Source of the DNA: a virus
Reading direction: 5' to 3' (one strand)
Length of the DNA stretch: 64,000 bases
Virus record (IMG/VR): IMGVR_UViG_3300045988_111815
Location: 80,893 to 144,892 of that record
In this document: positions 2,012 to 60,370 of the stretch, piece after piece
Layout: each line of letters opens with the position of its first letter
Position numbering within the stretch: the first letter of the stretch is position 1
Notes under the pieces: model-generated
Database searches by the model: none
What the model saw: the letters and a program-made list of their open reading frames with translations, nothing else
Told to the model about the DNA's origin: nothing
Position numbers and translations under genes: made by a program

Positions 2012-4813
2012 ATGAGATTACGAATCATAAAAAATCGTCCGGTATTCGCTCCTGGTGGTAGTGTTCAGGATGTTACACAACAGGCTGATACGACATCTAA
2101 TCCATATATTGATATGGACATGTCTAATGTTCCTGGTATGAGTGAGATAAATTCGGAAATAGATACGATGGAGGCGGGATTTGACAATATTATAGGTCCT
2201 GACTATTCTACTATAAAAATGCAAGAACCTTCTATTCCGACTATGAATGTAAGTAATAACAATACGTTCGATCCTAAGTCTATGCCCAAAGGAACTATTG
2301 TTAGTGTTGATAAAGAAGAAAATCAATCAAATGAAAAGCGATCACAAGATGGGAATCCTCTGGATCCTATGACTGCTCCTTATTATTCTCCTGATCTTGG
2401 AGGTCGAGCTCAAATGTTCGGTACAAGTCTTGGTCGGATAAGAGCAGGTAATAAGGTCGGCGCTAATGTGGCACAGGCTGCTTTTTCTGGATTGAGCCTT
2501 GGCATGGGTCTTGCTCGTAATATCATGGGAGCTTCATCTGCTGCGTATGCAGCCAGCAGAGACGAGCAGGCGGCAAGGGAAAAGCTCGAAAAAGAGCGCC
2601 GGCAGCAGTTTATCCGATGGGAACGTGAAGGAGGTGGCGTTAATCTTGGAAATGGTCAGAGAATAGATACGTCTGATTTGACAGGAGAATACATTTACCC
2701 TCTTCCTAAATCTATGGAGGATAATGCTAATGTTGAGATAGAAAAAGGAGAATACGTTTCGACTCCGGATGATGTTGGTCCTATGGAGGCAAAAGGCAAC
2801 AGGCATGAAGACGGTGGCACTCCCGTTGATTTGCCAGAAGCTCATATTATTTCAGATTACCGTACTATCGATGATGATTTCGCTTCTTACGTAAGGGAAA
2901 ATTATGGCATTAGCGCTACGGAAAAAGATACGTATGCTACGCTTCTTGATAGATATAAGAAAAAAATAGGATTGTCCGAAAAGTATGATGATCAGGAACG
3001 TGTTTTCAAGAGGTTAGAAAAGAATAAGGATGTTAAGGATAAAAATACTTCTGAGTTGAATAAGTCCATTCTTTCCAAGTACGTAAATGATAATCAAAAG
3101 GAAATAGACGAACTTGAGGTGCAATCCAGGTCTTTTGCTGATATTGTCTATAACAAACAAGAGGAATCCAAGCGCCAAGAAAAGATAGATGCTTTTTTTA
3201 GGGATGGCGGGGTTGTTGATCTGAATCAGGTAAAGAAACAAGCTAAGGCTTTTAATATTGCAGAATCAGATGCTAAGAACTGGATATATGACGAGTATGT
3301 TAAGCAAACCAGAAAAATGGCTGAAGGTGGACCTACTCAGAAGGAGCTGGAGGAACTTAGAAAGAATGCTATCGGCTACAATAAGCTTATCAATCAGTTA
3401 TTTGGACGAACTCTTAATATGACTGTATCTGATGTTAGTGGTCGTGAGCAGATTCTTAATCCTGATTCCAGTGTCAATGCCAACCAGAATCTCCAACATA
3501 GAAGCAATTTAGGATACGGCAGGGTAAATGATAAGGCGGTATCTAATTTGCTCGACATAAACCGATGGGCTAACAAGTACAATACGGATGGTGATTTTGA
3601 TACAGAAGGTTTCCAGAAAGAATACAACAGGCAATTAAATGCATTGTGGGCGTTAGCTGATGTAGGCGCTATTACGAATGCTGATGCAGCCAAGAAATTC
3701 AGAGATGAATACGGATTCTGGGGCCAGGACGCCGGAAGCTACGGAGGGAATCAGGCTTATAATTCATTTGCCGTAGATGATAAGTTTGGTCAGACAACAG
3801 CTACTCGTTCTTATTATGGGTTGGACGTTGTTTCGGCAGAGCAAAAAAGATTGTTAAACGAAAAAGGGATAAAGAATTATGTTGACTTATTTGGTGATAA
3901 ATCTGATGCCGCTAAGAAGATTCTGGGCTCCGATTATAATAAGTTTGTTGCTTTAAGAGATAGTGGGTTAATGCCGGAAATAGACTTCGTTCTTGAGTCT
4001 GTTAAACCAGAAATGAAGCCTATTGAGGCCGGTCCCATAGCACCAGGCCTTACACCGCCTAAGATTGGATCTACTGGAAGGATAGAGGTAAAACCGAAAG
4101 CAAGTACGCCTACGACTGCAACCGACACCGATACAGAGGAGGTGGTTGAAGACAACGGACCTAAAGGACAGGGCAGACCGGCGGCGTTCGGTCCTATTTT
4201 CCCGGAGATGCTGAGAACGCTCGATACAGGCTTGGAGATAGAAGGTCTGGAAAGGCATCAGGCTCCGAGAATAGACCCGGTTCTTCAATCTGCTGATCAG
4301 TATATCAACGAGCTCAACCGCGCGACATCGGCTCAGTTGGACGCAGTAGGTGACGTGCCCGACTCCCAGCGCTCCGCTATTCTGGCTAATATGAACGCCA
4401 TAGCCGGAAGCAATATAGCCAAGTACATTAACGAAGTAAATTTCAATAACGCAAGGCAAATAAACGAAGCTGATAGATTCAATGAAATGGCTTATGTTCA
4501 GACAGACGATAAGAACATAGCGGAAAGGCAACGTTATGAATCTGGGTTATTGAAGGCTATGGCTATAAGGGATGAAAATCTTGCTCGTTATTATGACAGC
4601 ATAAACAGTGAGATACAGAATAAGTTCAATGTTCGTACATCGTTGAATACCATAGCTTCCATAGCTCCGAATATGAGAATGCTTCCAAGTGGTCAAATTA
4701 TTTACGTTCAAGGTAATCAGGATGTGATGAATATGGGTGATTATTCTACACCTTACTTGAGAAGTTTAAATGAAGAAGATGATGAAATTAAAAGAAGAAG
4801 GAGGACCAAATAG
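2012..4813 (+). CDS. Large hypothetical virion/tail-associated protein (~934 aa)
   Basis: ORF 1997..4813 in the track begins at a GTG; the likely start is ATG 2012 (MRLRIIKN…). It is the first of four coupled large ORFs, which in crAss-like phages is the virion/cargo gene position. No catalytic motif seen. Confidence 0.65.
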   Translation: MRLRIIKNRPVFAPGGSVQDVTQQADTTSNPYIDMDMSNVPGMSEINSEIDTMEAGFDNIIGPDYSTIKMQEPSIPTMNVSNNNTFDPKSMPKGTIVSVDKEENQSNEKRSQDGNPLDPMTAPYYSPDLGGRAQMFGTSLGRIRAGNKVGANVAQAAFSGLSLGMGLARNIMGASSAAYAASRDEQAAREKLEKERRQQFIRWEREGGGVNLGNGQRIDTSDLTGEYIYPLPKSMEDNANVEIEKGEYVSTPDDVGPMEAKGNRHEDGGTPVDLPEAHIISDYRTIDDDFASYVRENYGISATEKDTYATLLDRYKKKIGLSEKYDDQERVFKRLEKNKDVKDKNTSELNKSILSKYVNDNQKEIDELEVQSRSFADIVYNKQEESKRQEKIDAFFRDGGVVDLNQVKKQAKAFNIAESDAKNWIYDEYVKQTRKMAEGGPTQKELEELRKNAIGYNKLINQLFGRTLNMTVSDVSGREQILNPDSSVNANQNLQHRSNLGYGRVNDKAVSNLLDINRWANKYNTDGDFDTEGFQKEYNRQLNALWALADVGAITNADAAKKFRDEYGFWGQDAGSYGGNQAYNSFAVDDKFGQTTATRSYYGLDVVSAEQKRLLNEKGIKNYVDLFGDKSDAAKKILGSDYNKFVALRDSGLMPEIDFVLESVKPEMKPIEAGPIAPGLTPPKIGSTGRIEVKPKASTPTTATDTDTEEVVEDNGPKGQGRPAAFGPIFPEMLRTLDTGLEIEGLERHQAPRIDPVLQSADQYINELNRATSAQLDAVGDVPDSQRSAILANMNAIAGSNIAKYINEVNFNNARQINEADRFNEMAYVQTDDKNIAERQRYESGLLKAMAIRDENLARYYDSINSEIQNKFNVRTSLNTIASIAPNMRMLPSGQIIYVQGNQDVMNMGDYSTPYLRSLNEEDDEIKRRRRTK

Positions 4814-7800
4814 TGGCTTCACAGTATAGTATTTTAAGGCAATATGCCCCGTATGTTAGTCCTTACAACATAGATCTTGTTAAGGACGTCATGATGTACA
4901 AACAGCAGAAGGTTGATGCTGCTCGTGAAAAGATCTATACCCAGGTAGATTATCTTATGGGTCAAGAGATAGATAAGCCTGAAGCCCGCGCTTATATGGA
5001 AGATAAGATGTCAGGTGTGATTGCTAACATCAATCAAAAATTCAAAGGCGTGGATCTTTCTTCTGATGGTGTTACGAGAGCCATACAAGGAGAGATAAGT
5101 TCGGTGTTAGATGATACGGTCATTAACGCGATTGCCGGCACAAAAGAAGGCAAGAGGGTTATGAAGGAAATAGAATCTATAAAACAGAATCATCCTGAAC
5201 TTTATTCTCCTATTAATGAATGGCATGCTTTGGACCCTTATTACAAATGGAGGTCAGATGGTAAAGCAGGATCAAGGTTGGGAGGTCTTCATTATTCTCC
5301 TTATGTCGATTATACTAAGGAGATAAATAAGCTGGTCAGTGATTTTAGGAAAAACAACGAAGGCAAGAAGATTCAGACAACAGAATATGATGTTAAAGGT
5401 AATCCTACTGGTGGAATCATAGAAGTCAACGTAGATGAGCTTACTGATTCCCAGATAAGGAATTTTGTGTCTGCTAACTTATCTGAAAACATGAGGAATC
5501 AGATGAGAATAGAAGCATCATACATGGCAGCTACCAATCCGGTGTTCAGTAATCCGGATTTGGTTAGTCAATACATTGGGTCTTATGTCGAAAGATACGA
5601 TAGGCACATAGGAGCATTGGAAGCAAAAAAGAAATCAGTAGGGGATAATAAGGATATTATTGATCGTATTGACAGTCAGATACAGGAAGCTAAAAATCAG
5701 AAAGCAGAAGCCAAGAGGGAGGCAGATATGATAATAGCTTCATCAGATCCGGTAGCGGCTGCTAATTTTGTTGTTACCAATAATCTTTTCGATAAGATGA
5801 CTGATGCATGGAGATACGACAATACAAGTTTTGAAAGGAAGAAAGATGATCTTTATTTTGCAAGGTTGGCAGAGGATAGGGCTCAGCAAAAGTTTTTGAC
5901 TGATAATGCTAAGTCTATGGTTGAAATATCGTTGGCAAAAGAGCAACTTGCACAGGCTAAGATTGAAACCGAATACATGCGTACTTACGGTTCCAAGATG
6001 GGCACTGAAAGCTCATCCGGAGGCACAAGAGGAGCAGGCGGTGTAGGAGTGCCGATGGCTCCTATGGACGGGCCTACGGCTATCAATTCTGGAACGGGTA
6101 AGATAGGATCTGTTAATTTGGCTAATATCCCTTATGAACAACTCACATCTTCTTCCACAGAGCGTAGAGCAAATTTATTGAAATTATATAATTCATTATC
6201 TCCTACAGACAGAAGTAATATCGTTGCAGCATCATACGAAGAAGAAAAAACTGACCCAGGATTGTATGCTAATATGACTCCTGAAGAACGGATATATTCT
6301 TATTTAAAAAATAATGGAGGTCAGAAAAACGGATATTTTGGACAAGGAAATAACAGATTGTCTGAAGCTTATGATGCTTTACTTCTTTCTGATTCTAAGG
6401 CAAATGGAGCTACAAAGGCTATAAATAACATAACTGATTATCAAATAGATAATATAGTTACTAAAAAAAATAAGGATATTATCAGTAAAGTTCGTAATGC
6501 TAAGTTTATGAAAGGAAATTCTTTTATAAATCTTACCGATACAGATGATAAGGCTGGAGCCTTCCTGCTCGCCACAGCCATAACAACTGGTGTATCTGAT
6601 GCCGTAGGGTTCAGAGAATACATGATGGACCCTTCAAGAGGAATAGATATTCTTAGTGCTATATCTCCGTCATTAGGAGCTAAGGCGAGTGCCGGCAAGT
6701 TGGGGAAAAACATATCTGATGCTATTACAAGCGAGAATAATGGTTCTTCTACTGGTACATTGGCTCTTATTAATGGAATGAAGAAACTCAACGGCGATCC
6801 TGATTTTAATATATCAGATTATATGACCATAGATAAGGATGGTGATATAGATTTAAAAGATTATCAGGAAGGTGAACCATTAACTATTACCCAGCTAAGA
6901 TATGCTGAGAAAAACAGTAGAGTGTCTGATATGATAGCAGGTCAGATGCAGGATGAGATAAAAATGTCTGTATCTCCTGATCAGATTTCTGATAAGTTAT
7001 CTCAGTATCATTACCTTGATTCTTACAAAAGATACAATTGGAATGCCGATTCACCGGAAAAGTCTTTGCAGAAGGCTCAGTTTAGAAGATTGTCTGGTTA
7101 CATGGCAGGAAAGGTAAATAATCTGGATCCTACTGCTATTAATGCCATTAATATGGATGCCGAGATAGATAATGGCACTGTTAGAAGATTCTTGACTGCT
7201 CAAGTAGGTTCCGGTAAAAATTCTTATGTTACAGAAAGGGTTGAGATTACGAATGACGAGCTTCTTAAGGCGGGTATAGATCCTTCGGTCGAGGAGCGTA
7301 ATTATCCGGTGGATGGTTACAAATCAAGTTTTGGAACCTGTGATTTTGTAGATACCGGAAAGAAGGAAGGTTATTCTTATGATAAGTATCTTATACGTAA
7401 TGGTCTTCCCCGTTTGGCTTCTAAGGCTGATGTTAAGAATGATCTTTATGATATAGTAAAGGTTCATGGTTCTTACCTTAAGCCAGAAGAAATGAATGTT
7501 GTTAAAACCCTTGTTGATAATTTTATTGACATGTCTGATAACATATCAGTTCAGTTGGAGGGAATGGATGACAGGGGTTCAAGAGAGGTAGCGGTCAATT
7601 TCTATGACAAAAGGACTAAAAATTCTAAAAATCCTGCATTGTTGTTCTCGGATTTTGTTCCTTTGGATCCAGGTAATGATGAGTATGCGGATTACTGGAA
7701 TAGCATTCACCAGAAGTGTCCTCAGTACTTCTTTGTAAAATACGTGAAGGAGGCTGTTCAAGAACGTCTTGATCAGATGAGGGATCCGTATATGAGAGGA

Positions 7801-7872
7801 ATAAATATCACGCCCAATATGAATGACAAGTTTAGTAAGTTGAACGATTTTTTGCAGAAAATTTATGGCTGA
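4813..7872 (+). CDS. Large hypothetical virion-associated protein (1019 aa)
   Basis: GTG start shares one base with the upstream stop (TAGTG), indicating translational coupling. No recognisable domain. Confidence 0.65.
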   Translation: MASQYSILRQYAPYVSPYNIDLVKDVMMYKQQKVDAAREKIYTQVDYLMGQEIDKPEARAYMEDKMSGVIANINQKFKGVDLSSDGVTRAIQGEISSVLDDTVINAIAGTKEGKRVMKEIESIKQNHPELYSPINEWHALDPYYKWRSDGKAGSRLGGLHYSPYVDYTKEINKLVSDFRKNNEGKKIQTTEYDVKGNPTGGIIEVNVDELTDSQIRNFVSANLSENMRNQMRIEASYMAATNPVFSNPDLVSQYIGSYVERYDRHIGALEAKKKSVGDNKDIIDRIDSQIQEAKNQKAEAKREADMIIASSDPVAAANFVVTNNLFDKMTDAWRYDNTSFERKKDDLYFARLAEDRAQQKFLTDNAKSMVEISLAKEQLAQAKIETEYMRTYGSKMGTESSSGGTRGAGGVGVPMAPMDGPTAINSGTGKIGSVNLANIPYEQLTSSSTERRANLLKLYNSLSPTDRSNIVAASYEEEKTDPGLYANMTPEERIYSYLKNNGGQKNGYFGQGNNRLSEAYDALLLSDSKANGATKAINNITDYQIDNIVTKKNKDIISKVRNAKFMKGNSFINLTDTDDKAGAFLLATAITTGVSDAVGFREYMMDPSRGIDILSAISPSLGAKASAGKLGKNISDAITSENNGSSTGTLALINGMKKLNGDPDFNISDYMTIDKDGDIDLKDYQEGEPLTITQLRYAEKNSRVSDMIAGQMQDEIKMSVSPDQISDKLSQYHYLDSYKRYNWNADSPEKSLQKAQFRRLSGYMAGKVNNLDPTAINAINMDAEIDNGTVRRFLTAQVGSGKNSYVTERVEITNDELLKAGIDPSVEERNYPVDGYKSSFGTCDFVDTGKKEGYSYDKYLIRNGLPRLASKADVKNDLYDIVKVHGSYLKPEEMNVVKTLVDNFIDMSDNISVQLEGMDDRGSREVAVNFYDKRTKNSKNPALLFSDFVPLDPGNDEYADYWNSIHQKCPQYFFVKYVKEAVQERLDQMRDPYMRGINITPNMNDKFSKLNDFLQKIYG

Positions 7873-10800
7873 CAATAATATAGATAGATATAATCCTGCT
7901 GCTAAAACCACTTACGAAGATGTGGCAAGGCAAAGGAAATTAGCCGAAGAAGAGAATTACACTCCGGCTACATTACCAGAGACGACAACGCCTCTGGTTC
8001 CTAATTATATGCCTGGTGAAGGTGTGTATGCCCAACCTAAATTTCCGGATTACGCATCAAGGATAGCTGCTGCCGAATACGAAGAACCGTATATAGCCAA
8101 GGAGATAAGCAACAGCTACTCAGAGGCACTGGCTCGTAACAGCTACAGGGGGGCTACACCTGCCCCGCCGCCTCTTAATCCCTATGGACCGAAGGTAAGT
8201 ATCCGTGAAAGTCATCAGATGGGTAATGATGGGGTATGGCGTACAAAATATTCTAACTATATTCCGGGTATAAACAATGAAGATTATTATGCCAGGAGAC
8301 AGAGCGGATGGAGTAAGTTTTGGAATGGTGTAGGCAAATTCGCTTTAAAATCCGCATTGTACGGTGCACAAGGAGTTGTGTCATTGCCTGACAAACTTAT
8401 CAATATGGCATCTGAGGGAAGTTACAAAGCTGCGTTAAACACTAACATGGATAAGTTTGTAGGTGATCTTGACCAGCAAATAGACATGCTTCTTCCCCAT
8501 TATTACAAGAAAGAGGTAGAAGATTATAATTTTGGTCAGAAGCTTTTTAAGGATACCGGTAATTTCTTGTGGAATGACGTCCTTGGTAATGGTATGTCTT
8601 TTACCGTAGGAGCCATGATATCAGCGTACATGACCGGAGGACTTGGAGTTGGATCATTGGGTAATATAGGCGCTAAATTAGGTGGAAGAATCGGAGCTAA
8701 GTTAGCAGCAAGGCAAGCTGCCAATAGGGGCATAGGAAGCCTTAAAAGCGTGTTTAACGACTATGTAAGAAAAGGAGTTGCTACCGGAAGAAATGTAGGG
8801 GAGGCGGCTAAGACCATGACGTTGTTGGCTACCAGTGCCGGATTCGAGTCATCGGTTGAAGCAAATTCTTTTATGAAGCAATCTGAGTCTGATTTCAAGG
8901 ATTATTATCGTAAGATTTATGGTCGTGATCCCAATGCAGAGGAAATGGCTGTTTTTCGTAATTCTAATGCTGATGTAGGTAGTGCTATATTTGCCGCCAA
9001 TATGGGTATCGTAGGATTATCTAACTGGCTTCTTTTTGGTAAGTATATAGGGTTAGGAGGCAAGGCTATACCAGGGTTGGAAAAGAGGCTCAACAAGCAT
9101 TTATTTGGATTAGGGACGGAAGTTGCGAAGCCGGGAGAGATGGCTATTAAAATAACCAATCCCAATATAGGACAGAAGATAGCAGGCAATGTTTTCAATA
9201 TCATGAAAAGACCGGTATCTGAAGGCTTATGGGAAGAAGGATCTCAAGGTGCTGTTCAGAATACGGCTGAGGAATATGTTAAGTCAAGATATGATAATGT
9301 CGCCATGAACGGAGCCGTTGATGTTCTTGATGCTATTTCTGAAGGATTTAAAAAGCAATATACGTCTAAAGAAGGATGGACTGAAATAGGAATCGGTGCT
9401 ATTATCGGTTCTTTGTTTGGTATGAGAGAAGGCTTCTTTGGGGTGAAAGAGTATAGTAATAGTCAGATCTTGCTGGAAAGGCAAGTGAATGAATATAACA
9501 AAGCATCTTCTAATCTTAACACGGCGGCTTTGAATACGTTGAAAAAATCAATGAGTTTAGGGCCTCAAGTTCGTTCCGATGCCCAGTCTATGACTGGTAA
9601 GGAGCTTGATGATGCTATGTTTGAAAAGATGTCTATTGACAACCAAATGGGAACCTTAGAGGATTCGGCTGAAAATTTCCGGCAGATGATTGATATGATG
9701 CCTATTTCGGAAATAGCCGAAGCTAATGGAATGTCTTTGGAAGAGGCAAAGAAATACAAGGACTCTATTATTGATAATTATAATAATCGTCTTTCGGATT
9801 TCAGATCTGCCCAGAGTTTTGCCGAAGATCTTATAGGTGATGATTCTAAGATTGAGTTTAGGAAATACGTGGCTCGTAATGCTTTTCTTGGTCTTCAATC
9901 GGAATCAAGAATGAAAGACATAGCTTCTGTCATAGAAACGCTTTCGGGGCAGCCTCGCGTGGCGGATGCTCTAAGTACGTTCTCCCGGCTGTCGGACAGG
10001 GCAAGGGAGCGGGCGATGGCTATCCGTGGCATACGGTCAAGAATAGAAGAACTTGAATCCGAAATAGAAGATCTTGCTACCCGCCCTCGCAACGTAGAAG
10101 GGAAAGATCCACAAGCTGAATCCATACAACGAAAAACCAAAGAATTGGAAAGCCTTAGAACCAATTACAACAATTCGTTGTCTGAGTTATCAACGTTAAT
10201 AGGAAAAGAGTTTTCGATAGAAGAGCTGGTAAGTAAAACCGAATCTGTTTTATCATCTCCTCTTTCTCCCATAAGTTCACAAGATGTGATAGAAGCCTAT
10301 GATACGCTTGTGGCTTTTGATGATTATTTTAATGTAAAATCAAGACAGGAAAAGAAGTTTACAGCCAAAGACAAAGCCATGAGATCCTTGGTAAATGAAT
10401 ACCGAAGAAGTTTGATGGACTATAGGAATATGAATAACTTCTTGTCTAAGATGCTTGATAAAAGATTCTTAGCTGAGGAAAACAGGGGGTTTTCAAAAGC
10501 GCTGTCTTCTCTATGGTCTACTCCTTATAAAGGGGATGACAAGGTTCCTGATTTTGCAGAGTCTAATAAAGTTGGTGAATATGACACTGATGAGGTAGTA
10601 GATCAAGCTGTGTCAGAAGGTAAGATTTCGGAAGACGAAGCTTGGACTATCAAGGCTTTTATGCATGCTCTTGATAAAGTAAGGGAAGATAGGATGAAGG
10701 AAGCAGAAGATGATATAAAAGAGTCACCGCTTACGGAGTCTGTATCGGATGAAGATTATGAGGCTGCTATGGATAATCCTATTATGGTTCCGGCCGTAAG

Positions 10801-13800
10801 GCAGTCTATAATTGATAAACTATATACAGGTAATGCCGATCTTCTTACTGAGAGAGAAAAAGATGTGTATGATAAATACAAACAAGATTTTGATGATTAT
10901 GTATCGTCTTTGGGTGACAGTCCCGTTAATCTCATAAAATCATTATCTGAAAAGGCTGATAGGCTTACAAGTCCGAGATCTGTGTATGAGGATAATAAAG
11001 CTATTATTGATATGGCTAAATCCAATTTGGAACCAGATCAAAGGAAGGAACTTGATGATGCTATTTCTTCGTATGTTGATATAATGAACAGACGGGACAA
11101 AGGGGAGAAAGTTGACGAAGATAAGCTTGCCGATTCGGTATTTACCATAGAAGATCTTGGCCAGGTTGGAAACATCACGGATCTCCTTCCTTATATCGAA
11201 CAAAACAGGATTATTGATAAAGGTCGTATTTCCGAATCTACGTTAAGTAATTTTGGGGAGGATGATGCTAATATAGATTCTCTTGTAAATGAATTAGACG
11301 AATCTGATAATACGCCGGGAGCCAATATAGATAGCGCCCAGAATCCAGAGACGTTGATGGTAAGAAGAATCTCCAATGACGGCAATGAAAGGTATGAAAT
11401 TGCAGGTCTTAGAGCCGATAAATTTATATCTTCTATAAAATCATTGGTTCCTATTCAAATAAGCTCTGAAACGAACGCTAATGGTACTAAAAGGTATTCT
11501 CTTAACATAGGTGGAGAAACGGCTACTATAATTGAACTGCCTTATCATGCGAGATGGTCTATAGACAAAGAATCGGCTCGTGTTCTTAACCGTTACACAG
11601 ATGTGTCTATTCAGGACGTGGGTAATTCATATTCTTTGGTTTATAAGCGTCTTGATTCAGACGAATTGGTTCCGTACAGAACAGGTGTTGGATTCGGAGA
11701 GAATGAAGTAGATAAAATAGATCAGGAAGCATTATCTTCTTTGAAGAAAGGAGATAAGGTTAATCTTGAGATAGATGCAAATGATACCTATAATCAGTCT
11801 CTTTTTGCCGAATACAATGATGCTGTTCAGTCCGGTGATAAAAAAAGAATAGAATCTGCTGAAAATAAGCTGGTATCCAATATGGTTATCAAGGTCATGA
11901 GTGGAAACAGATTCGTTTCTGTTGTAAAAGCTGACACAGGAGGCATAGATGGTATAAGTAAGATAAGAAGAACGGCTTTTAACAAGTGGAAGAAGGACGC
12001 CGGCCGGTCGGCCACCATCAACGTCGGCACGCATGTTGTTGCCCAGACCCTTCCTGGAAGACCGGTGTTTAACATGAGAGTAAACGGTCAAGGATATGGT
12101 CAGGTAGAAAATCTCCCTATTACCGAAAAAGGAGCTGAAAAAGTATCTGATGTCGGATATGTATTAAATGGCAAAGTCGTGCTTAAGAACGGATCTAAAT
12201 ACACAGGCTTCCCATTTGCTTATTCTATATTAAATGACAAGGGGAATAATTACAAAAATGTAAGAGTTCCGGTAGTTGTCATCAAAGGCAAAAACGGTCT
12301 TAATTATCTTTTCCCGGTTAGTCTACGTTCTGTGGAATCAGAGGAAGGAAAGAAATGGATTTCTTTTATAGATATGCTGCTTGAATCAGGTGACTCTGAA
12401 TTGTTACAGATGGGTCAAGATGATATACAAGATCTTAATGCGTATCTAACCAAGTTAGGCCTTGATCCGGCTTCGTATCAAGTATCGTATTTGAATCCTA
12501 TTTCAGGGCTTAGAAAAGCTCGTGAGGCTATAGAAAAATTATCTACGGTTCCTGATGTTGTTAAATGGGTAGAAGATGAAAGCAGGAATGTGAAAGACAT
12601 TGTGATGTCTGAAGTAGAATCTGGAATAGATTTCGAAGGTGAGATGTTTGTCGCTCCTAAGATCAGGATTCAGTTTGGTAAATCATCTTCCAGACCTAAA
12701 TCACTTATAGAAGATGATCTCCCTTTCTCCGATGAGGGTAAGACCGTTACTTCCAAGGAAGATGTGGATATTTACGAAGATGAAATGCCAGAGGAAGACC
12801 CTGTCCGGGGGACTCGGCCGGCGCCACCAGCCCAGCCGGCTCCTGCGGCACAAGCTACGCAGTCCTTACATGGCAAGAAGCGCACCTCCAGAAAAAACTT
12901 CTCTCTTATGTTAAACGAAATAGAATCTCATATAGAAAAAGAAGGATTGCCGTCTTATGCTAATATTTTTGATTTTATAGCAAGGAAGATTGTAGGAGGT
13001 GATTTGAGGTTTCTTCGTGAGAGAGGTAATCCTAAAAGCCTTAAGGAAGAAATGGGATTAGAACCTAAAGGAACAGTAGGTGATAAAATATCCACTCCTT
13101 CTAAAAAGGGAGGTAAGACCTTAGAAGAATATGTTTCTTGGCTTCGTTCTCAAACAGATCAGGTGGTGGTTGATTATGTTGGTCCAAGATCTGACGAACA
13201 AATTATATCAGAGTTGAAAAACTTTTTGAAATATATTAATTTTGTTCCAAGCAAGGCTTTGAATTATTCTCTTAGAGTCAATGGCATGGATGCCCTAAAA
13301 GAATATGGCACAAAAGAGGAAGTAGAAAAAATGGAATCTGACATCAATAGTTTGGTTTCTGAAGTTTTGCCTACGGTAGATAATCAAACTGTAGAAGATG
13401 TTTCTACTGCAATAGAATTAAATAACCTGCCTGCCATATGGAGACCTATGGAAAGCCTTGATATGACAAACGAGGAAAAAATAGAGTTTTTGAATAACGT
13501 AGCAGATTTCCTTAGCGGCATTCCAGAGTATGATGCTGTTGTGGAGTCTATAGAGTCAGAATCAGATAATATTTTAAATGATGGAAAAGAAGGAAGTGCA
13601 GAAGGCGGTGCAGTACGCGCTGAGGAAGATGGCGATAAAAAGGGAGATGGAAAAAGAGAAGGACAACCCAGAGATGATGGCAAAGCTGAGGGAGATGTCT
13701 ATTTACCTGGATCTGAAGAAGGAAGAGTAGATAACTATAAGAAGAACGGAGATAAGTTCTCTGATATTGCCGAAGTTACTTTATGGTTACTTAGAAGGGC

Positions 13801-14506
13801 TGCCGGCATAACCTCTATCCCGGAAGGAGAAGAGGTTTATGTAGAGGGGGATGAAGTTAATAGCATTATGACCGATATGGAATCAAGGTACGGGATAGAC
13901 ACCATCAACCACTCGCATACGACTAAGGCTATAAGGGATCTTAACGGCGTATCAGGTTATAAAGTAGAATACGGCTTAACCTTTTTAACATACGATCCTT
14001 TTATTAGAATATCCAATCCAAGGAAAGAATCTAAGGCCGAGAAAGACGAACCTCGTATATCCGAAGAACCGCTTACTCACATATCAAGGGTAACAACCCC
14101 TTATTTCCTGTACGGCGGTGATGAAGCATATACATCTGTTCCGGCTAAGGTAGAACCTATACCGGAGAAGATAATGGGTCGTAATGGCATTAAATTTGGT
14201 ATGAGTGTAGTCGAGTTAACCAAATTAGGGTACAAAAAAGCTGGTGGAAACTGGATATATAAATTCTATATGAACTCAGGTGTGTATGATTTGTATAATA
14301 TCAGTACCGGTGAAGCGTTTAGGGTAAAACCGGATCTTGGAGTTAAGATAAGTTCCAGTGCATTCATCCGCTCTTTATCTCAATCTGGTAGAAAAATACA
14401 AAATATGATGAGTAATATGAGCCAGGAAGAGATAGATAGAAATAAGAATCTCGTAGAAGGTTCTGATAATTCGGATTCGATAAATGAGTTAAATAAGGAG
14501 TGTTGA
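7865..14506 (+). CDS. Giant protein (2213 aa), candidate virion cargo/ejection protein
   Basis: 6.6-kb uninterrupted ORF. ATG overlaps the upstream stop by 8 nt. Gly-rich, coiled-coil and acidic stretches. Giant internal virion proteins are a hallmark of crAss-like phages. Confidence 0.75.
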   Translation: MADNNIDRYNPAAKTTYEDVARQRKLAEEENYTPATLPETTTPLVPNYMPGEGVYAQPKFPDYASRIAAAEYEEPYIAKEISNSYSEALARNSYRGATPAPPPLNPYGPKVSIRESHQMGNDGVWRTKYSNYIPGINNEDYYARRQSGWSKFWNGVGKFALKSALYGAQGVVSLPDKLINMASEGSYKAALNTNMDKFVGDLDQQIDMLLPHYYKKEVEDYNFGQKLFKDTGNFLWNDVLGNGMSFTVGAMISAYMTGGLGVGSLGNIGAKLGGRIGAKLAARQAANRGIGSLKSVFNDYVRKGVATGRNVGEAAKTMTLLATSAGFESSVEANSFMKQSESDFKDYYRKIYGRDPNAEEMAVFRNSNADVGSAIFAANMGIVGLSNWLLFGKYIGLGGKAIPGLEKRLNKHLFGLGTEVAKPGEMAIKITNPNIGQKIAGNVFNIMKRPVSEGLWEEGSQGAVQNTAEEYVKSRYDNVAMNGAVDVLDAISEGFKKQYTSKEGWTEIGIGAIIGSLFGMREGFFGVKEYSNSQILLERQVNEYNKASSNLNTAALNTLKKSMSLGPQVRSDAQSMTGKELDDAMFEKMSIDNQMGTLEDSAENFRQMIDMMPISEIAEANGMSLEEAKKYKDSIIDNYNNRLSDFRSAQSFAEDLIGDDSKIEFRKYVARNAFLGLQSESRMKDIASVIETLSGQPRVADALSTFSRLSDRARERAMAIRGIRSRIEELESEIEDLATRPRNVEGKDPQAESIQRKTKELESLRTNYNNSLSELSTLIGKEFSIEELVSKTESVLSSPLSPISSQDVIEAYDTLVAFDDYFNVKSRQEKKFTAKDKAMRSLVNEYRRSLMDYRNMNNFLSKMLDKRFLAEENRGFSKALSSLWSTPYKGDDKVPDFAESNKVGEYDTDEVVDQAVSEGKISEDEAWTIKAFMHALDKVREDRMKEAEDDIKESPLTESVSDEDYEAAMDNPIMVPAVRQSIIDKLYTGNADLLTEREKDVYDKYKQDFDDYVSSLGDSPVNLIKSLSEKADRLTSPRSVYEDNKAIIDMAKSNLEPDQRKELDDAISSYVDIMNRRDKGEKVDEDKLADSVFTIEDLGQVGNITDLLPYIEQNRIIDKGRISESTLSNFGEDDANIDSLVNELDESDNTPGANIDSAQNPETLMVRRISNDGNERYEIAGLRADKFISSIKSLVPIQISSETNANGTKRYSLNIGGETATIIELPYHARWSIDKESARVLNRYTDVSIQDVGNSYSLVYKRLDSDELVPYRTGVGFGENEVDKIDQEALSSLKKGDKVNLEIDANDTYNQSLFAEYNDAVQSGDKKRIESAENKLVSNMVIKVMSGNRFVSVVKADTGGIDGISKIRRTAFNKWKKDAGRSATINVGTHVVAQTLPGRPVFNMRVNGQGYGQVENLPITEKGAEKVSDVGYVLNGKVVLKNGSKYTGFPFAYSILNDKGNNYKNVRVPVVVIKGKNGLNYLFPVSLRSVESEEGKKWISFIDMLLESGDSELLQMGQDDIQDLNAYLTKLGLDPASYQVSYLNPISGLRKAREAIEKLSTVPDVVKWVEDESRNVKDIVMSEVESGIDFEGEMFVAPKIRIQFGKSSSRPKSLIEDDLPFSDEGKTVTSKEDVDIYEDEMPEEDPVRGTRPAPPAQPAPAAQATQSLHGKKRTSRKNFSLMLNEIESHIEKEGLPSYANIFDFIARKIVGGDLRFLRERGNPKSLKEEMGLEPKGTVGDKISTPSKKGGKTLEEYVSWLRSQTDQVVVDYVGPRSDEQIISELKNFLKYINFVPSKALNYSLRVNGMDALKEYGTKEEVEKMESDINSLVSEVLPTVDNQTVEDVSTAIELNNLPAIWRPMESLDMTNEEKIEFLNNVADFLSGIPEYDAVVESIESESDNILNDGKEGSAEGGAVRAEEDGDKKGDGKREGQPRDDGKAEGDVYLPGSEEGRVDNYKKNGDKFSDIAEVTLWLLRRAAGITSIPEGEEVYVEGDEVNSIMTDMESRYGIDTINHSHTTKAIRDLNGVSGYKVEYGLTFLTYDPFIRISNPRKESKAEKDEPRISEEPLTHISRVTTPYFLYGGDEAYTSVPAKVEPIPEKIMGRNGIKFGMSVVELTKLGYKKAGGNWIYKFYMNSGVYDLYNISTGEAFRVKPDLGVKISSSAFIRSLSQSGRKIQNMMSNMSQEEIDRNKNLVEGSDNSDSINELNKEC

Positions 14507-14508
14507 GT

Positions 14509-15087
14509 ATGAGAAGGAGATACGAAGATGTTTCAAATCTTGTTCAGTATCAGTTGAAGACCAATCAGCAGGGGGATATAGAGGTTTATGTTGATGACAG
14601 GTTTGTTGGAAACGTAAGTGAAGGAGTCTGTAATTGGAAGGATATTGAATACAAGAGCAAAGTTACTATATCTTTGAAAGGAGTCGAGGATAAGGCTAAA
14701 ACTTTAAGTAAAAGAGTCGGTCCCTATTGTCACATTTATAGCATATTTGGAGGAAATGAATCTTATCATGAAGGTCCGGATAGTAATATAAAAAAGAGTC
14801 CGGTTACCACCTTTATAATGTATTGTTATAAAAATGGGGATATTACAACTACCACCACTTATACTAAAAATTTATCTGGAACTCTTCAGATAGGTAAAAC
14901 ACAATTGACTATCAATTACAAACAAAGTAAAAGTCAGTCTTTTTCTGGTGGTGATAAAGATTATGTAACATCCGTATCTGATTTCCCTTTTGTTACTGGT
15001 CCAGGAGATAATAGCGTTGAGTTTGAAGGAGAGGGAAGATTGATAGTTGAGACAGAGGCTTCGCATTATGAAATAGAAGTTTCTTGA
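14509..15087 (+). CDS. Hypothetical protein (~192 aa), last gene before the IS insertion
   Basis: ATG at 14509 is preceded by AAGGAG. Its stop lies 13 nt from the convergent tnpB stop. The C-terminal codons may overlap IS right-end sequence. Confidence 0.5.
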   Translation: MRRRYEDVSNLVQYQLKTNQQGDIEVYVDDRFVGNVSEGVCNWKDIEYKSKVTISLKGVEDKAKTLSKRVGPYCHIYSIFGGNESYHEGPDSNIKKSPVTTFIMYCYKNGDITTTTTYTKNLSGTLQIGKTQLTINYKQSKSQSFSGGDKDYVTSVSDFPFVTGPGDNSVEFEGEGRLIVETEASHYEIEVS

Positions 15088-16335
15088 CATACTCCCATCG
15101 CTAAAGCAAACGGGATTCTTGGATACAAACGCAAGAAACCCCGATATTACTATCGTTGGAATTACTCTTACTCTCCAATTCGGAAATGCCCTTCCGAAGT
15201 ATATTACGGGCTGCAAGAATATCACGGTCGTTTACCGCTCCGCACGCCGGGCATACCCACGTGCGGTCGCGTAACGACAGTCCTTTATTAATGCAGCCAC
15301 ATTCGCAAGTTTTGGAAGAAGGATACCATTTATTAATCTTGTGTATCGTTACTCCATACTTTGAAGCAACATACGTAAGTTTATCAATAAAAGAAGAATG
15401 ACTGAGATCAGAAACTTTCTTTCCCCACAAACGTTTCATTCCTTCAATGTTTAGATCTTCAATAAAAATATAATCATACTGTTTGCATAACTGGTGTGCT
15501 AATCCCCATTGAAAATCTGATCGAAGATCGTTTATTTTACGATACGTTTGTTGGAGTTCAAACAGTCTCCTTCTTCTATTGTTGGATCCTTTCTTTGCAT
15601 TAGAAATCCGTTTATTTAGTTTTCTAATCTTGTTTTGATATTGTTTAAAGAATAATGGAGAATCGATTTTGCTACCATCGCTTTTAGTTAGATAAGTTTT
15701 CAGCCCAAAATCCAATCCGATAGATGCACCATCATGTGTCTTTCTATAAGAGTTTGAATGATTATGATCTGTAACTATAATCAAACTAAAACGGGAACAG
15801 GTTTCTCTAACTATTCTAATTTGTTTAACATTACCTTCGTAGACTCTACTGTATGAAAATCTAAATCGTTTCTTTCCTTTGTTAATTGTTAGACAATTCC
15901 CATTCAGGGTAAACCCTCCTTGTTTGAAAACAAAAGAGTTAAAACAATCAGCTCTTTTGAACTTAGGAGGTCGTTTAGCCAACTTCTTAAAGAAACGATT
16001 ATAAGATTCATCAAGACGTTCAAGTATTTCTTGTGTTGTTTGAGAATGAAGAAGATTTCTTTTAATTCTTTTGGTAAAATGTTTCTTCATTTTACCAATT
16101 GATATATATTTCCTAAACAGTTTGTAGTATCTACGTTGTAGAGCTAACGCATGATTCCATACAAAACAACATTCACGAAGCATTTTGTCAAGATACTTCG
16201 TTTTCTTGGAATGGTATATGTTGTATTTGTATGAAATCATTTTTATCTGTAATTTTGATTCAAAATTAATCAAACCAATTCATCCACCTTCTAAAGTATG
16301 GTGGTTTTGTTGGTTAAATTATCATAATTTCTATT
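15040..16335 (-). mobile_element. IS200/IS605-family TnpB-only (IS1341-like) insertion element; boundaries approximate
   Basis: Solitary tnpB on the strand opposite the flanking operon. No Y1 (HUH) TnpA is adjacent. The 74-nt upstream spacer contains hairpin CCACC…GGTGG (16284-16304). The 3' coding end contains a perfect palindrome TTCGGAA…TTCCGAA. Exact left/right ends could not be determined by eye. Confidence 0.5.
15101..16273 (-). CDS. tnpB: TnpB (OrfB) RNA-guided endonuclease-type transposon protein, IS605 family (390 aa)
   Basis: RuvC-I: IGLDFGLKTYLT. RuvC-II: IFIEDLNIEGM. Zn finger: CECGC…CPACG. RuvC-III: DRDILAARNI. N-terminal region is OrfB-like (…CFVWNHALALQRRYY…). Confidence 0.85.
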   Translation of the reverse strand: MINFESKLQIKMISYKYNIYHSKKTKYLDKMLRECCFVWNHALALQRRYYKLFRKYISIGKMKKHFTKRIKRNLLHSQTTQEILERLDESYNRFFKKLAKRPPKFKRADCFNSFVFKQGGFTLNGNCLTINKGKKRFRFSYSRVYEGNVKQIRIVRETCSRFSLIIVTDHNHSNSYRKTHDGASIGLDFGLKTYLTKSDGSKIDSPLFFKQYQNKIRKLNKRISNAKKGSNNRRRRLFELQQTYRKINDLRSDFQWGLAHQLCKQYDYIFIEDLNIEGMKRLWGKKVSDLSHSSFIDKLTYVASKYGVTIHKINKWYPSSKTCECGCINKGLSLRDRTWVCPACGAVNDRDILAARNILRKGISELESKSNSNDSNIGVSCVCIQESRLL

Positions 16336-16342
16336 TTTATAC

Positions 16343-16350
16343 TATCTTTG
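16343..16350 (+). promoter_or_regulatory. Bacteroides-type -7 box (TATCTTTG) for the 16369 gene
   Basis: TATCTTTG lies 18 nt upstream of ATG 16369. Confidence 0.45.
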
Positions 16351-16368
16351 TCTAAAATATTTATCACT

Positions 16369-18627
16369 ATGGGTGTCAAATGTCAGATAGAAAAAAAGGA
16401 AAATGAAATAAAACGGGTTAAGGCTCCTAACGGGGAGCCTTCCGTTCTTTACGAAAGTGCTTTAAAAGTATTAGGAAACAGCGAGCGGGCTCTTCAGGTA
16501 TGGGCTAAGGCTTACACTCCTGGTTTTTTGTCGTATTACGGTCATTGGAATAACCCGGCTCCAGGGGAGATGTTTAACACCGATCCCAATGGCGAACCTC
16601 TTTTAGAAGATGTGCTGTCGTATATGAAGCGTCAGACTTATTTTGCTGATCCTTTAACGGCTCAGGATGTTAAGGATGTAAGGGATTTCCTTTTGTCTAC
16701 TCATTATTTTTTCAATGCGTCTTCATTGTCTAATGCTATTCTCTTCGATTTTTATGTAGATGGCAGTTTGATACTGAATGAGCAGAATTTAAGGAGATCC
16801 GGTTTGTATGATGAAACAGAAATAAGTCGTATTTTATCCGATCCTTCTGTTTTAAACGAGGTTTCGACTTCCATGAGAAAGTTAATAGATTCTTCTATTA
16901 ACGAACATGATAGGGAAAAAGATAATTATTTTATGTCTATTGACTATCAGTATGGTCCTATTGTTTACAAGGAGGGAGTGTTTAACCAATTTGGTAAAAA
17001 AGTACCATATAATCCTTCTGAGCTTTATTATGCTATGCGTAAAACAGTAGCCGGCATAAAAAACTTTTCTGAATTTTCATCTGCTTTTGAATCGTTGAGA
17101 AATTCATATCCTGAACTGGTTGAGAAATTCGTTTCTGATAAAGAATTTGCCGAATCTATGTTTGATGAGTTCTCATCTACGAATAAGATTCCGGTAATAA
17201 ACATAGAAGGGGATGATGTGGTGGAAGGCAAGAGAAGATCTTTGTCTAAGCTACAAGATCTTTCTTATTACAATTCCGGCAAAATAGAGTTCCTAAGAGC
17301 TCGTATATCAGCTTATTTACATAGGGCTAATGCCGACACCGAATCCGATTTAAGAAGCATGATATGGGATATAGAAGAGGCTTGTACGTGGTTTGGCATA
17401 GATATAATAGGGACATCGGAAACTTATGATGGCACAGAAGAATCTTTGAATAAGATAGATAATTTGATGCTGGATCTTGATATTTATGTGGCCAGGCATA
17501 ATGATGTAAATTATGCTCCAACGCTGGCATCTTCTATAGATGATGTTCTTGGTGATAGTACAGACTATTATTTTGGATTATTGCCGGAGTATATGGATAA
17601 TTTGAATATCGTTTATTCTGAATCCGATATAGACCCAGTAGAGGCATTTGAGAAACATTCATTGCTTAAGGTAGGAGATAATCTATATCAAAGGATCAGC
17701 AAAGATGATCTTAACGAGATGTATCAAATATCAACAGTATTAGCCAAGCACAACCTAACTCATTTTTCTACTAAAATATATCCTGAATCTTGTTTTAAGA
17801 ACGGCGTTTTGGATAAAGAGAAAGTACGGAACGTAGATAATAATACGCTCATGGCTTCCATTAAAAAATACGTCAGATCGTTCATGGATTCTCAGAACAC
17901 AGAGGACATGATAATGACCAGGATGGCGTTTGGGCACCCTGCGGTACTTGACGTTCCTTACGTGGATGTGGATCGGGAGTATAGTCGATACATGAACAAA
18001 AAACAAGATAGCGAAAACCCATTATCCTTATTCGATTTATACCAATCTTACCTTGACAACAAACTCCATAAAACAAAATTATATGATAATGCCTATAAGT
18101 ATCTTGACTTCAAACCTGGTCCATCTTTGGGTCTTATTTCTGATGATCCTGATATTTTGAAATCAATAGAATTATCTTTATCTGGAAAAGACAGGTTGAT
18201 GTTGTTTGATTATAGCATGACCAGTACCGACCCTTCTTTATCAGAATTGTTTTATTTGGAGAGGTATGACCCTTCGTATGCTGGGAATGATTTTGAACAC
18301 TATTTTTACACCAGGCACCCGTATTTGTTAAAAGAAAAATCGGGTTCTAATATCGTAGAGCAAGATGGTGTTATAACAGCAGAAGGTATTTATGATAATT
18401 TTATAAGAGTAGGTAATAAGATATGGTCTAAAGTAAGCGAGAGTAGTTCCGGCTCTATCTACCAAAATCTGACAGGAACCGAATCGGAGGTGAAATACGA
18501 TTCTACTCAGAAGGCTAAGACGGTAGAAACTGATTACGCTCCATACCAAAACAGATCTGGCTTGACGCAAGACATGACCGTAAGCAAGTCTGAATTGGAT
18601 GATCTTAACAAATTGGAATGCAGGTAA
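16369..18627 (+). CDS. Large hypothetical protein (~752 aa), probable structural protein
   Basis: The ORF track begins at TTG 16348; the likely start is ATG 16369 (MGVKCQ…). No identifiable motif. Confidence 0.65.
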   Translation: MGVKCQIEKKENEIKRVKAPNGEPSVLYESALKVLGNSERALQVWAKAYTPGFLSYYGHWNNPAPGEMFNTDPNGEPLLEDVLSYMKRQTYFADPLTAQDVKDVRDFLLSTHYFFNASSLSNAILFDFYVDGSLILNEQNLRRSGLYDETEISRILSDPSVLNEVSTSMRKLIDSSINEHDREKDNYFMSIDYQYGPIVYKEGVFNQFGKKVPYNPSELYYAMRKTVAGIKNFSEFSSAFESLRNSYPELVEKFVSDKEFAESMFDEFSSTNKIPVINIEGDDVVEGKRRSLSKLQDLSYYNSGKIEFLRARISAYLHRANADTESDLRSMIWDIEEACTWFGIDIIGTSETYDGTEESLNKIDNLMLDLDIYVARHNDVNYAPTLASSIDDVLGDSTDYYFGLLPEYMDNLNIVYSESDIDPVEAFEKHSLLKVGDNLYQRISKDDLNEMYQISTVLAKHNLTHFSTKIYPESCFKNGVLDKEKVRNVDNNTLMASIKKYVRSFMDSQNTEDMIMTRMAFGHPAVLDVPYVDVDREYSRYMNKKQDSENPLSLFDLYQSYLDNKLHKTKLYDNAYKYLDFKPGPSLGLISDDPDILKSIELSLSGKDRLMLFDYSMTSTDPSLSELFYLERYDPSYAGNDFEHYFYTRHPYLLKEKSGSNIVEQDGVITAEGIYDNFIRVGNKIWSKVSESSSGSIYQNLTGTESEVKYDSTQKAKTVETDYAPYQNRSGLTQDMTVSKSELDDLNKLECR

Positions 18628-60058: not shown

Positions 60059-60343
60059 TTATACTCCGGTCTTTCCATTTCCTCTGTTTATTACTCTATA
60101 GTATTTATCCTTATCCCCTTCTTCCAACTTCTCCAGATAGAAAATTCCATCATGTAAATGAGACAAACAAAACCTGTATCCGTATTTCTGCGTTCTTCTT
60201 ACATGATCCCGCAGTCTTATCTCTTCACTTTTGTCTTGTACTTTGATCTTAATACTGTCTCCTTCTTTGATTGTGTATAAAATAGTTTGAATCTCTTCTT
60301 TTTTCATCTTATAAAATATTTTAACGGCAGCACCTATACTCAC
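60059..60343 (-). CDS. Hypothetical protein (94 aa)
   Basis: ORF only. Confidence 0.4.
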   Translation of the reverse strand: MSIGAAVKIFYKMKKEEIQTILYTIKEGDSIKIKVQDKSEEIRLRDHVRRTQKYGYRFCLSHLHDGIFYLEKLEEGDKDKYYRVINRGNGKTGV

Positions 60344-60370
60344 GCACCACTACTGCCTTATGTTTAACAA

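Follow-up and report, generated by a model that had tools for sequence, protein, structure and literature searches.

A transposase-less IS608-like element with an intact tnpB gene and a covarying ωRNA in a gut epsilon crAss-like phage

The 64,000-nucleotide stretch of IMG/VR virus record IMGVR_UViG_3300045988_111815 analyzed here, hereafter the window, carries a 1240-bp insertion sequence (IS) of the IS200/IS605 family at 15084-16323. Very probably this is a recently acquired, non-autonomous IS608-like element: it has both ends, an intact tnpB gene, and an ωRNA; it has lost tnpA; and it would be moved in trans and retained by TnpB. The element lies on the minus strand, flanked by plus-strand genes: those for a 2213-aa protein (7865-14506) and a 192-aa protein (14509-15087) on one side, and that for a 752-aa protein (ATG at 16369) on the other. 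A preliminary description had read this antisense gene as a TnpB-only IS605-family element. Both parts of that reading are borne out: the Pfam and NCBIfam matches, the left and right ends, and the absence of tnpA identify the element, and the stops of tnpB (15101-15103) and the 192-aa gene (15085-15087) are 13 nt apart.

The limits of the element come from comparison with insertion-free relatives, as the preliminary description had proposed. The phage crAssE-Sib (OR575929, 151 kb, human gut), 90.6% identical to the window flanks at the nucleotide level, and 60 empty sites from IMG/VR define both the ends and the target, TTAT. In global alignment the crAssE-Sib empty site (locus L001, 4567|4568; other L numbers likewise denote loci) is exact, and empty and occupied alleles differ by precisely the 1240-bp insert (minus strand). 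The empty junction reads gaaatagaagtttc|ataatttcta, and the occupied allele, on the element strand, ...AGAAATTAT|GATAATTTAACC...(element)...GGGAGTATGTCAA|GAAACTTCTATTTCAT. A shared TC leaves a 2-nt ambiguity, with placements from 15082-16321 to 15084-16323; the earlier bounds of 15040-16335 had implied these limits loosely. The same alignment reveals neither target duplication nor terminal inverted repeats. Directly 5′ of the left end stands the target and transposon-associated motif (TAM), TTAT (16324-16327, minus strand; ATAA on the plus strand). This tetranucleotide is present in the empty sites; it is phage DNA rather than element sequence, and the TAA that originally terminated the 192-aa gene overlaps it.

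The left end (16241-16323, minus strand) belongs to a type termed LE1, and its layout follows the spacing and the GL/CL pairing rule published for IS608 (PMC3201880). It comprises a 19-nt spacer, GATAATTTAACCAACAAAA, followed by a subterminal hairpin, CCACC-ATACTTTAGAA-GGTGG (16284-16304). The last four spacer residues, AAAA at 16305-16308, form a putative TnpA guide (GL). Downstream of the hairpin, about 23 nt before the tnpB ATG, is TAATTTTG, possibly a Bacteroidota −7 box and hence a promoter. Two TAnnTTTG motifs were noted in this neighborhood: TATCTTTG upstream of the 752-aa gene (16330-16345, plus strand), and TAATTTTG itself upstream of tnpB (16262-16269, minus strand). Both resemble the Bacteroidota −7 promoter box, and are too short to be significant alone. 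A scan for sigma-70 promoters and terminators did no better than with shuffled sequence, Bacteroidota and phage promoters lying outside its models.

The right end holds a subterminal palindrome (15093-15115, minus strand), which doubles as the terminal helix of the ωRNA (helix 5) and in which 7 of 9 pairs show compensatory change. It is followed by GTATG and then TCAA (15084-15087), 5 nt past the hairpin foot; the TCAA site of IS608 is 10 nt 3′ of the right palindrome (PMC3201880). As DNA, the hairpin would be bound by TnpA, and TCAA would be the right cleavage site. The element thus has subterminal palindromes at both ends together with a right-end tetranucleotide, the arrangement expected of an IS200/IS605 element. 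The predicted junction of the excised circle is TCAA-GATAATTT. The exact right-end pattern occurs once in the window.

Insertion at this site is silent for the 192-aa gene because the right end rebuilds the stop codon. The reverse complement of TCAA supplies TGA at 15085-15087 (plus strand): the empty allele ends GTT TCA TAA and the occupied allele GTT TCT TGA, with the protein unchanged. The element lies upstream of the 45-nt leader that precedes the 752-aa gene, and leaves it intact.

Occupancy of the site is polymorphic. Among IMG/VR relatives whose locus was retrieved through the 192-aa protein, 60 are empty, with TTAT and the target intact, and two are occupied (L279, on the contig of L004, and L280). 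Another two, L005 and L012, combine the left junction of the window with a different right flank, and are deletion derivatives. The window element is closest to L004 (98.2%) and L005 (97.9%), and these shared nearest sequences suggest a single origin. Over the right 1.2 kb, identity to the window reaches 99.9-100% in many empty genomes, as against 97-98.7% in L279. Since empty genomes have flanks nearer than those of an occupied one, turnover of the allele, by gain or loss, outpaces divergence of the flanks. This pattern of occupancy would be expected from precise excision, from homing, or from ordinary recombination between phages.

IS elements are classic sources of misassembly, so the locus might in principle be a chimera in which reads from a bacterial IS were fused to phage sequence. 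The same junctions, however, recur in independent assemblies (L004/L279 and L280) and in the derivatives L005 and L012; they follow the TTAT/TCAA rule to the nucleotide; and no close bacterial copy was found in the genomes described below. A chimera is scarcely credible on this evidence, and was rejected for its exact junctions in independent assemblies.

Some copies pair the left flank of one TTAT site with a right end joined 12-491 bp further on. There are five cases: L005 and L012 (window 14787-15083 and 14825-15083), L017 (19568-19769), L015 (47506-47517), and L044 (60688-61178). The displaced join falls exactly 3′ of a second TTAT of the window sequence in three of the five, and after ATAT or TTGT in the others; at the window locus, the 192-aa gene thereby loses ~260-300 bp from its 3′ end. 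Such joins would be explained by recombination between two neighboring insertions in the same orientation, or by TnpA acting in cis on the right end and a target close by.

The tnpB gene itself is intact. It occupies 15101-16240 (minus strand; 379 codons plus stop) within an open reading frame (ORF) of 15101-16273. Its product matches the Pfam domains Cas12f1-like_TNB (5e-20), OrfB_IS605 (1e-17), and, weakly, HTH_OrfB_IS605; bit scores stand well above the cutoffs for PF01385 (64.9 against 30.5) and PF07282 (71.8 against 26.3), marking it as a TnpB by domain content, and for NCBIfam guided_TnpB (236 against 100). In PHROGs the match is phrog_506, "transposase" (1e-89). A phmmer search of the PDB aligned the protein end to end with ISDra2 TnpB (8BF8/8EXA, E = 5e-27). 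The RuvC triad D177/E261/D340 corresponds to ISDra2 D191/E278/D361, and the zinc cysteines C312, C314, C330, and C333 correspond to C331/C334/C351/C354. All seven residues are invariant in 109 full-length homologues.

The preliminary description had called this an intact 390-aa TnpB, and had named loss of RuvC residues as the sign of an inactive one. The RuvC domain and zinc finger are indeed intact; the length is not 390 but 379 aa, the longer figure arising from an upstream TTG inside the left end. An ATG equivalent to that at 16240 is the start in all 58 intact IMG/VR copies, and the same start and length occur in nearly all of the 120 best database relatives. The first zinc pair, also, is spaced as CxC (C312, C314) and not, as had been stated, CxxC.

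tnpB is under purifying selection. The ratio of nonsynonymous to synonymous substitution rates (dN/dS) is ~0.12 over codons 1-335 (pairwise Nei-Gojobori, 50 unique coding sequences). Over the final 44 codons dS is 0.12 instead of 0.33 and dN/dS is higher, at 0.52, as expected where a structured RNA overlaps a weakly constrained protein tail. The window TnpB is predicted to be an RNA-guided nuclease, both from its intact residues and from the logic of the TAM and guide sequences described below.

Purifying selection would also be seen in a domesticated TnpB, recruited by the phage as, for example, a TldR-like RNA-guided regulator and no longer mobile; the antisense position inside a structural gene block and the missing tnpA would fit as well. 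Yet RuvC, which TldR-type regulators have lost, keeps its catalytic residues here; ~90% of close relatives lack the insertion at this locus; a unit with identical ends occupies 50 or more unrelated sites; and the guide is whichever flank adjoins the right end. The preliminary description had regarded the same gene at the same locus in related genomes, with no identifiable IS ends, as the mark of domestication. With ~60 relatives empty and their target intact, the element is mobile rather than domesticated, and domestication, contradicted by the insertion polymorphism, is very unlikely and was rejected.

The preliminary description had also expected an ωRNA at the 3′ end of tnpB, reaching the right end and overlapping the 3′ end of the 192-aa gene antisense. 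Covariation supports such an RNA. Alignments were made of the 175 nt, then of the 120 nt, that precede the right end in 32 to 35 non-redundant copies, including diverged clades (L084, L169/170, L220, L229, L316, L318, Parabacteroides phage PF672P2, and MT835597). RNAalifold and pair counts on two alignments, A1 and A3, delimit a scaffold of ~115 nt (15084-15198, minus strand), a minimum extent. It covers tnpB codons ~348 to 379 plus 17 nt past the stop, and terminates in AGUAUGUCAA at 15084.

RNAalifold finds five helices in this region. With the explicit structure applied to A3, 95.5% of cells are paired and 25 of 36 pairs are compensatory; sliding the partners by 1-3 columns lowers these figures to 34-53% and to 4-13 pairs. 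Shuffled controls yield 9.8 ± 1.5 compensatory pairs, and none of 500 shuffles reaches the observed value. Alignment A1 gives similar support (22 of 42 pairs compensatory), the pairing over A1 and A3 being 95.5-96.9% compared with 34-56% for slid partners.

Helix 1, UUCGGAAG/UUUCCGAA (15179-15198, minus strand), is the palindrome TTCGGAA/TTCCGAA that the preliminary description had proposed as a candidate stem. It is 100% paired in 35 sequences, and 3 of its 8 pairs are compensatory (A-U to C-G; UC/GA to GA/UC). These swaps alter the encoded residues (K to Q, S to A), and therefore the RNA is the constrained partner there. Helices 2-4 form a covarying multibranch (15119-15178, minus strand). 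Helix 2 is a long-range pairing of 15174-15178 with 15119-15123 that encloses the other two; 4 of its 5 pairs are compensatory, UUGGA/UCCAA being replaced by UUAGA/UCUAA, UUGAA/UUCAA, UUGGG/CCCAA, or UCCGG/CCGGA. Helix 3 joins 15165-15171 to 15131-15137 (5 of 7 pairs compensatory), and helix 4 is a hairpin of 15151-15159 with 15139-15146 (6 of 7).

The scaffold stops exactly at the transposon boundary in ~240 copies whose downstream flanks are unrelated, as an ωRNA should. A covariance model, R1, scores 141 bits at the window ωRNA, a self-match, and the model built from A3 found no solo ωRNA or right-end copy elsewhere in the window. An Rfam cmscan of 14000-17500, at E up to 10, returned no ωRNA family, its one result being a chance rli34 match outside the element.

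The predicted guide, GAAACUUCUAUUUCAU (15068-15083, minus strand), is the phage flank directly 3′ of the right end, its 16-nt length being assumed from ISDra2. It is antisense to the last five codons of the 192-aa gene. TTAT plus this guide sequence is mismatch-free in crAssE-Sib and in 59 of the 60 empty IMG/VR alleles (60/61 in all); within the window the guide sequence occurs once, and that copy lacks the TAM. The empty allele is thus the sequence that the element would be programmed to recognize.

These features also bear on whether the element is an inert relic, an IS remnant no longer capable of moving or cutting. The 64 kb hold no TnpA, and ~6 of 80 copies in the family do have stops or a lost start codon (~74 are intact). 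In the window copy, however, the full ORF, the active site, both hairpins, and a complete ωRNA scaffold are all present; two other copies at this site share 98% identity with it; and flanks 100% identical to those of empty genomes point to recent acquisition or loss. A relic is accordingly improbable, and was rejected on these intact parts and on the recent gain or loss.

The element consists of a single ORF, and it is for want of tnpA that it is filed as a non-autonomous derivative of the IS200/IS605 family. Pfam searches of 86 window ORFs of 95-300 aa and 10 other large ORFs revealed no Y1_Tnp domain, serine recombinase, or second TnpB, and tblastn with a TnpA of the family against the 64-kb window found nothing. 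Autonomous relatives do exist. A TnpB 72% identical at the amino acid level (P0111) adjoins a divergent 132-aa Y1_Tnp gene in five gut metagenome contigs, and this TnpA scores 145 bits on NCBIfam transpos_IS200. TnpA is carried also by L003, L139, L157, L161, and L318-322; the tnpB genes of L139, L157, and L161 are 84-88% identical to that of the window in nucleotide sequence. Comparison of the L161 and L157 flanks with GenBank phages by BLAST gave no match or unannotated fragments alone.

A TnpA scan of IMG/VR yielded 22 loci, as against ~270 for TnpB. One IMG/VR contig, 113423, bears both a TnpA-containing copy (L333) and a TnpB-only copy (L044), the latter with flanks that match window 60088-60687 at 98% identity. 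This phage group therefore harbors autonomous and non-autonomous copies together.

Loci L318-L322 have a further feature. At 4590-5777, ~450 bp downstream of the autonomous relative and just before a ~2148-aa gene, is a second, different TnpB of 395 aa, so that two unrelated OMEGA elements stand side by side. In crAssE-Sib, two TnpBs that are only 18% identical have been reported (PMC11054128).

The family is large, and unusually widespread in this phage group. A TnpB-based scan of IMG/VR recovered 267 relatives, and two further scans with diverged queries led to the same family of ~270 copies. Most are on phage contigs of 75-160 kb, several of which carry two or three copies. The ~240 copies analyzed share the same sharp ends in unrelated flanks, with 55 distinct flank pairs. 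This spread over many unrelated sites, together with the presence/absence polymorphism, establishes mobility. The family right end reads ...CCCAYYYGC-TTTA-GCRATGGGAGTATGTCA(A/T/C), then unrelated DNA; its final tetranucleotide is TCAA, with TCAT or TCAC in a few copies.

Left ends fall into two types. LE1, that of the window, is preceded by TTAT in 35 of 35 junction classes; LE2 is preceded by TTAC in 8 of 8. The four residues 5′ of the left hairpin change in step, AAAA in LE1 and AAAG in LE2 (for example L011, L019, and L161). This covariation of AAAA with TTAT and AAAG with TTAC appears to be the IS608 GL/CL rule displayed in natural variants; together with the TCAA right end and the 19-nt left spacing shared with IS608, it is good sequence-level evidence for IS608-type single-strand transposition chemistry. 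TnpB proteins that are ~90% identical occur with both targets, which suggests that the TAM is TTAY.

A search of 185,579 species-representative bacterial genomes, by a scan that needs exact 8-mer peptides, found one relative, 56% identical, on a phage-like contig of a metagenome-assembled genome without TnpA; because of that requirement, absence from bacteria is not proven. None of the 120 best relatives is on a contig larger than ~160 kb, and the same limit applies to close relatives (at least 70% aa identity). This suggests that the TnpB lineage lives mainly in phages.

Three kinds of additional observation were made on the family. Several TTAT or TTAC sites that are empty in the window are occupied in relatives: 33990|33991 (L009), 28034|28035 (L066), 47517|47518 (L015/L020), 19567|19568 (L017), ~50393 (L058), and 61179 (L044). 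One or two additional GTCAA units follow the right end in tandem (…GTATGTCAA GTCAA GTCAA…) at L077 (~5160-5170), L316 (4157-4170), and L317 (1836-1850); these loci represent two independent lineages, and the extra units could reflect slippage or repeated cleavage and ligation at the right site. Finally, at ~3560-3646, some 1 kb downstream of a full copy, L167 and L234 contain a pair of right-end fragments inverted tail to tail, one matching CAAGAATCCCATTTGCTTTAGTGATGGGAGTATGTCAA in reverse complement and the other in direct orientation; the arrangement looks like a solo ωRNA or right-end remnant.

Together, these results suggest the following mechanism. TnpA would be supplied in trans, from autonomous copies in related or co-infecting phages. 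Its top-strand cuts would fall just 3′ of the TTAT that borders the left end and just 3′ of the right-end TCAA, and the resulting single-stranded circle would be inserted 3′ of another TTAT. Processing of the tnpB transcript would yield an ωRNA that takes its 3′ guide, GAAACUUCUAUUUCAU, from the flank. TnpB-ωRNA would then cut phage genomes in which TTAT directly precedes a match to the guide, the configuration of an empty or excised allele. On the model of ISDra2 and Geobacillus elements, repair by recombination with an occupied genome would restore the insertion. In a lytic phage this process would take place between co-infecting genomes, with TnpB functioning much like a homing endonuclease.

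Several points weigh against this account. The window, in which TnpA was not found, is part of a genome, and mobilization in trans in this phage is therefore presumptive. Expression and cleavage we infer from sequence. Non-sister occupied alleles may reflect mosaic recombination or precise excision rather than homing, and there is no sign of co-conversion: between the window and L279, identity in the immediate flanks (95-97%) does not exceed that farther out. The bounds given for the ωRNA are a minimum extent on the 5′ side. One long-range helix proposed by RNAalifold (15218-15222 with 15086-15090, AUGUC at the right end) was rejected, as it varies on one side only and lacks compensatory support.

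A bolder version holds that the element is mainly a phage-versus-phage weapon, or a homing element independent of TnpA, which excludes or converts empty epsilon crAss-like genomes during co-infection, in the way that free-standing homing endonucleases bring about marker exclusion in T-even phages. Potential victims abound, 60 of ~65 sampled relatives holding the TAM and a perfect or near-perfect 16-27-nt target. Occupied alleles represent one element lineage in non-sister flank backgrounds; close relatives are confined to contigs of up to ~160 kb, with the single distant phage-like match among 185,579 genomes; and TnpB-only copies greatly outnumber those with TnpA (~270 to 22 in IMG/VR). Occupancy at this site is low, however (~5/67), unlike that of an efficient drive; the co-conversion tract is absent; and more than 50 different sites need a transposase, not homing alone. 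We regard this version as doubtful, though conceivable; it is an extension of the proposed trans-mobilized, TnpB-retained element rather than an alternative to it.

The closest well-characterized relatives of the element are IS608 and IS605 of Helicobacter pylori, which pair a Y1 HUH TnpA with TnpB. Like IS608, it lacks inverted repeats and target duplication, and inserts 3′ of a tetranucleotide (TTAC for IS608; TTAT or TTAC here). Its right end is TCAA, it has subterminal hairpins at both ends, and 19 nt separate the cleavage site from the left hairpin (PMC3201880). The guide AAAG for TTAC is that of IS608, and AAAA for TTAT follows the published GL/CL pairing rule (PMC3201880). In its autonomous relatives, as in IS605, tnpA is divergent from tnpB. 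It differs from both in that the window copy is without tnpA and in that its hosts are gut epsilon crAss-like phages, not a bacterial chromosome; the window TnpB is only ~37% identical to copies in Helicobacter phages.

ISDra2 of Deinococcus radiodurans (8BF8/8EXA/8H1J) offers the structural parallel: domain order, the RuvC D-E-D triad, a four-cysteine zinc site, an ωRNA spanning the tnpB 3′ end and the right end, the flank as guide, and a TAM that equals the transposon target site. The differences lie in the TAM (TTAT/TTAC here, TTGAT in ISDra2), in the CxC spacing of the first zinc pair, and in an unrelated ωRNA sequence. The scaffold defined here has ~115 nt and five helices; the full ωRNA may also include a pseudoknot or a longer 5′ part.

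Among phage elements, a TnpB of crAssE-Sib itself (WOZ57285) is 78% identical to that of the window, with the same right end and ωRNA; that copy is at another locus, and the window's site is empty there. The published account lists TnpB-family transposases, without defining ends, target, ωRNA, or polymorphism (PMC11054128). Free-standing homing endonucleases of T-even phages (SegF, Mob, and others) similarly have a nuclease gene between conserved phage genes and a cleavage site that is the allele lacking the gene, and homing of this type is predicted to result in gene conversion or marker exclusion in co-infection (PMC13565253). The window element differs in that recognition would be RNA-guided and set by the flank, and in having transposon ends and many sites.

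The phage context is in keeping with these comparisons. crAssE-Sib is an epsilon crAss-like phage of the proposed genus Epsilonunovirus, some members of which have "two transposase genes" of the TnpB family (PMC11054128). Near the element, a 1019-aa protein matches a virion structural protein PHROG, and the crAssE-Sib homologue of the 2213-aa protein is annotated as structural. Elsewhere in the window, a 566-aa ORF (35930-37630, minus strand) has SPFH/Band 7 (2.5e-25) and Flotillin (1.5e-9) domains, and other ORFs encode a dATP/dGTP diphosphohydrolase N-terminal domain and DUF4494.

The element class is well understood, and TnpB genes in epsilon crAss-like phages are already in print. New, and descriptive, are the exact ends, the target and TAM, an ωRNA backed by covariation, an insertion kept silent by a rebuilt stop codon, the extent of the family's expansion, and the covariation of TTAT/TTAC with AAAA/AAAG.

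TnpB-ωRNA systems are the ancestors of Cas12, and are themselves compact genome editors. The window element offers a candidate 379-aa nuclease with a short TAM (TTAT/TTAC) and a covariation-defined scaffold of ~115 nt. With hundreds of copies at dozens of sites, ~13 TnpB-only copies for each with TnpA, and clean occupied and empty alleles, the family provides a natural system in which to test for virus-virus RNA-guided homing. Its insertions, and deletions between TTAT sites, may add to structural variation in crAss-like phages. More tentatively, this TnpB/ωRNA lineage may be endemic to epsilon crAss-like and neighboring gut phages, persisting largely without its own transposase through RNA-guided homing or marker exclusion; the idea is possible, if some way short of probable. 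If it is true, each copy would amount to a homing endonuclease that programs itself, biasing recombination between phages at ~50 loci and helping to shape the mosaicism of a very abundant group of human-gut viruses.

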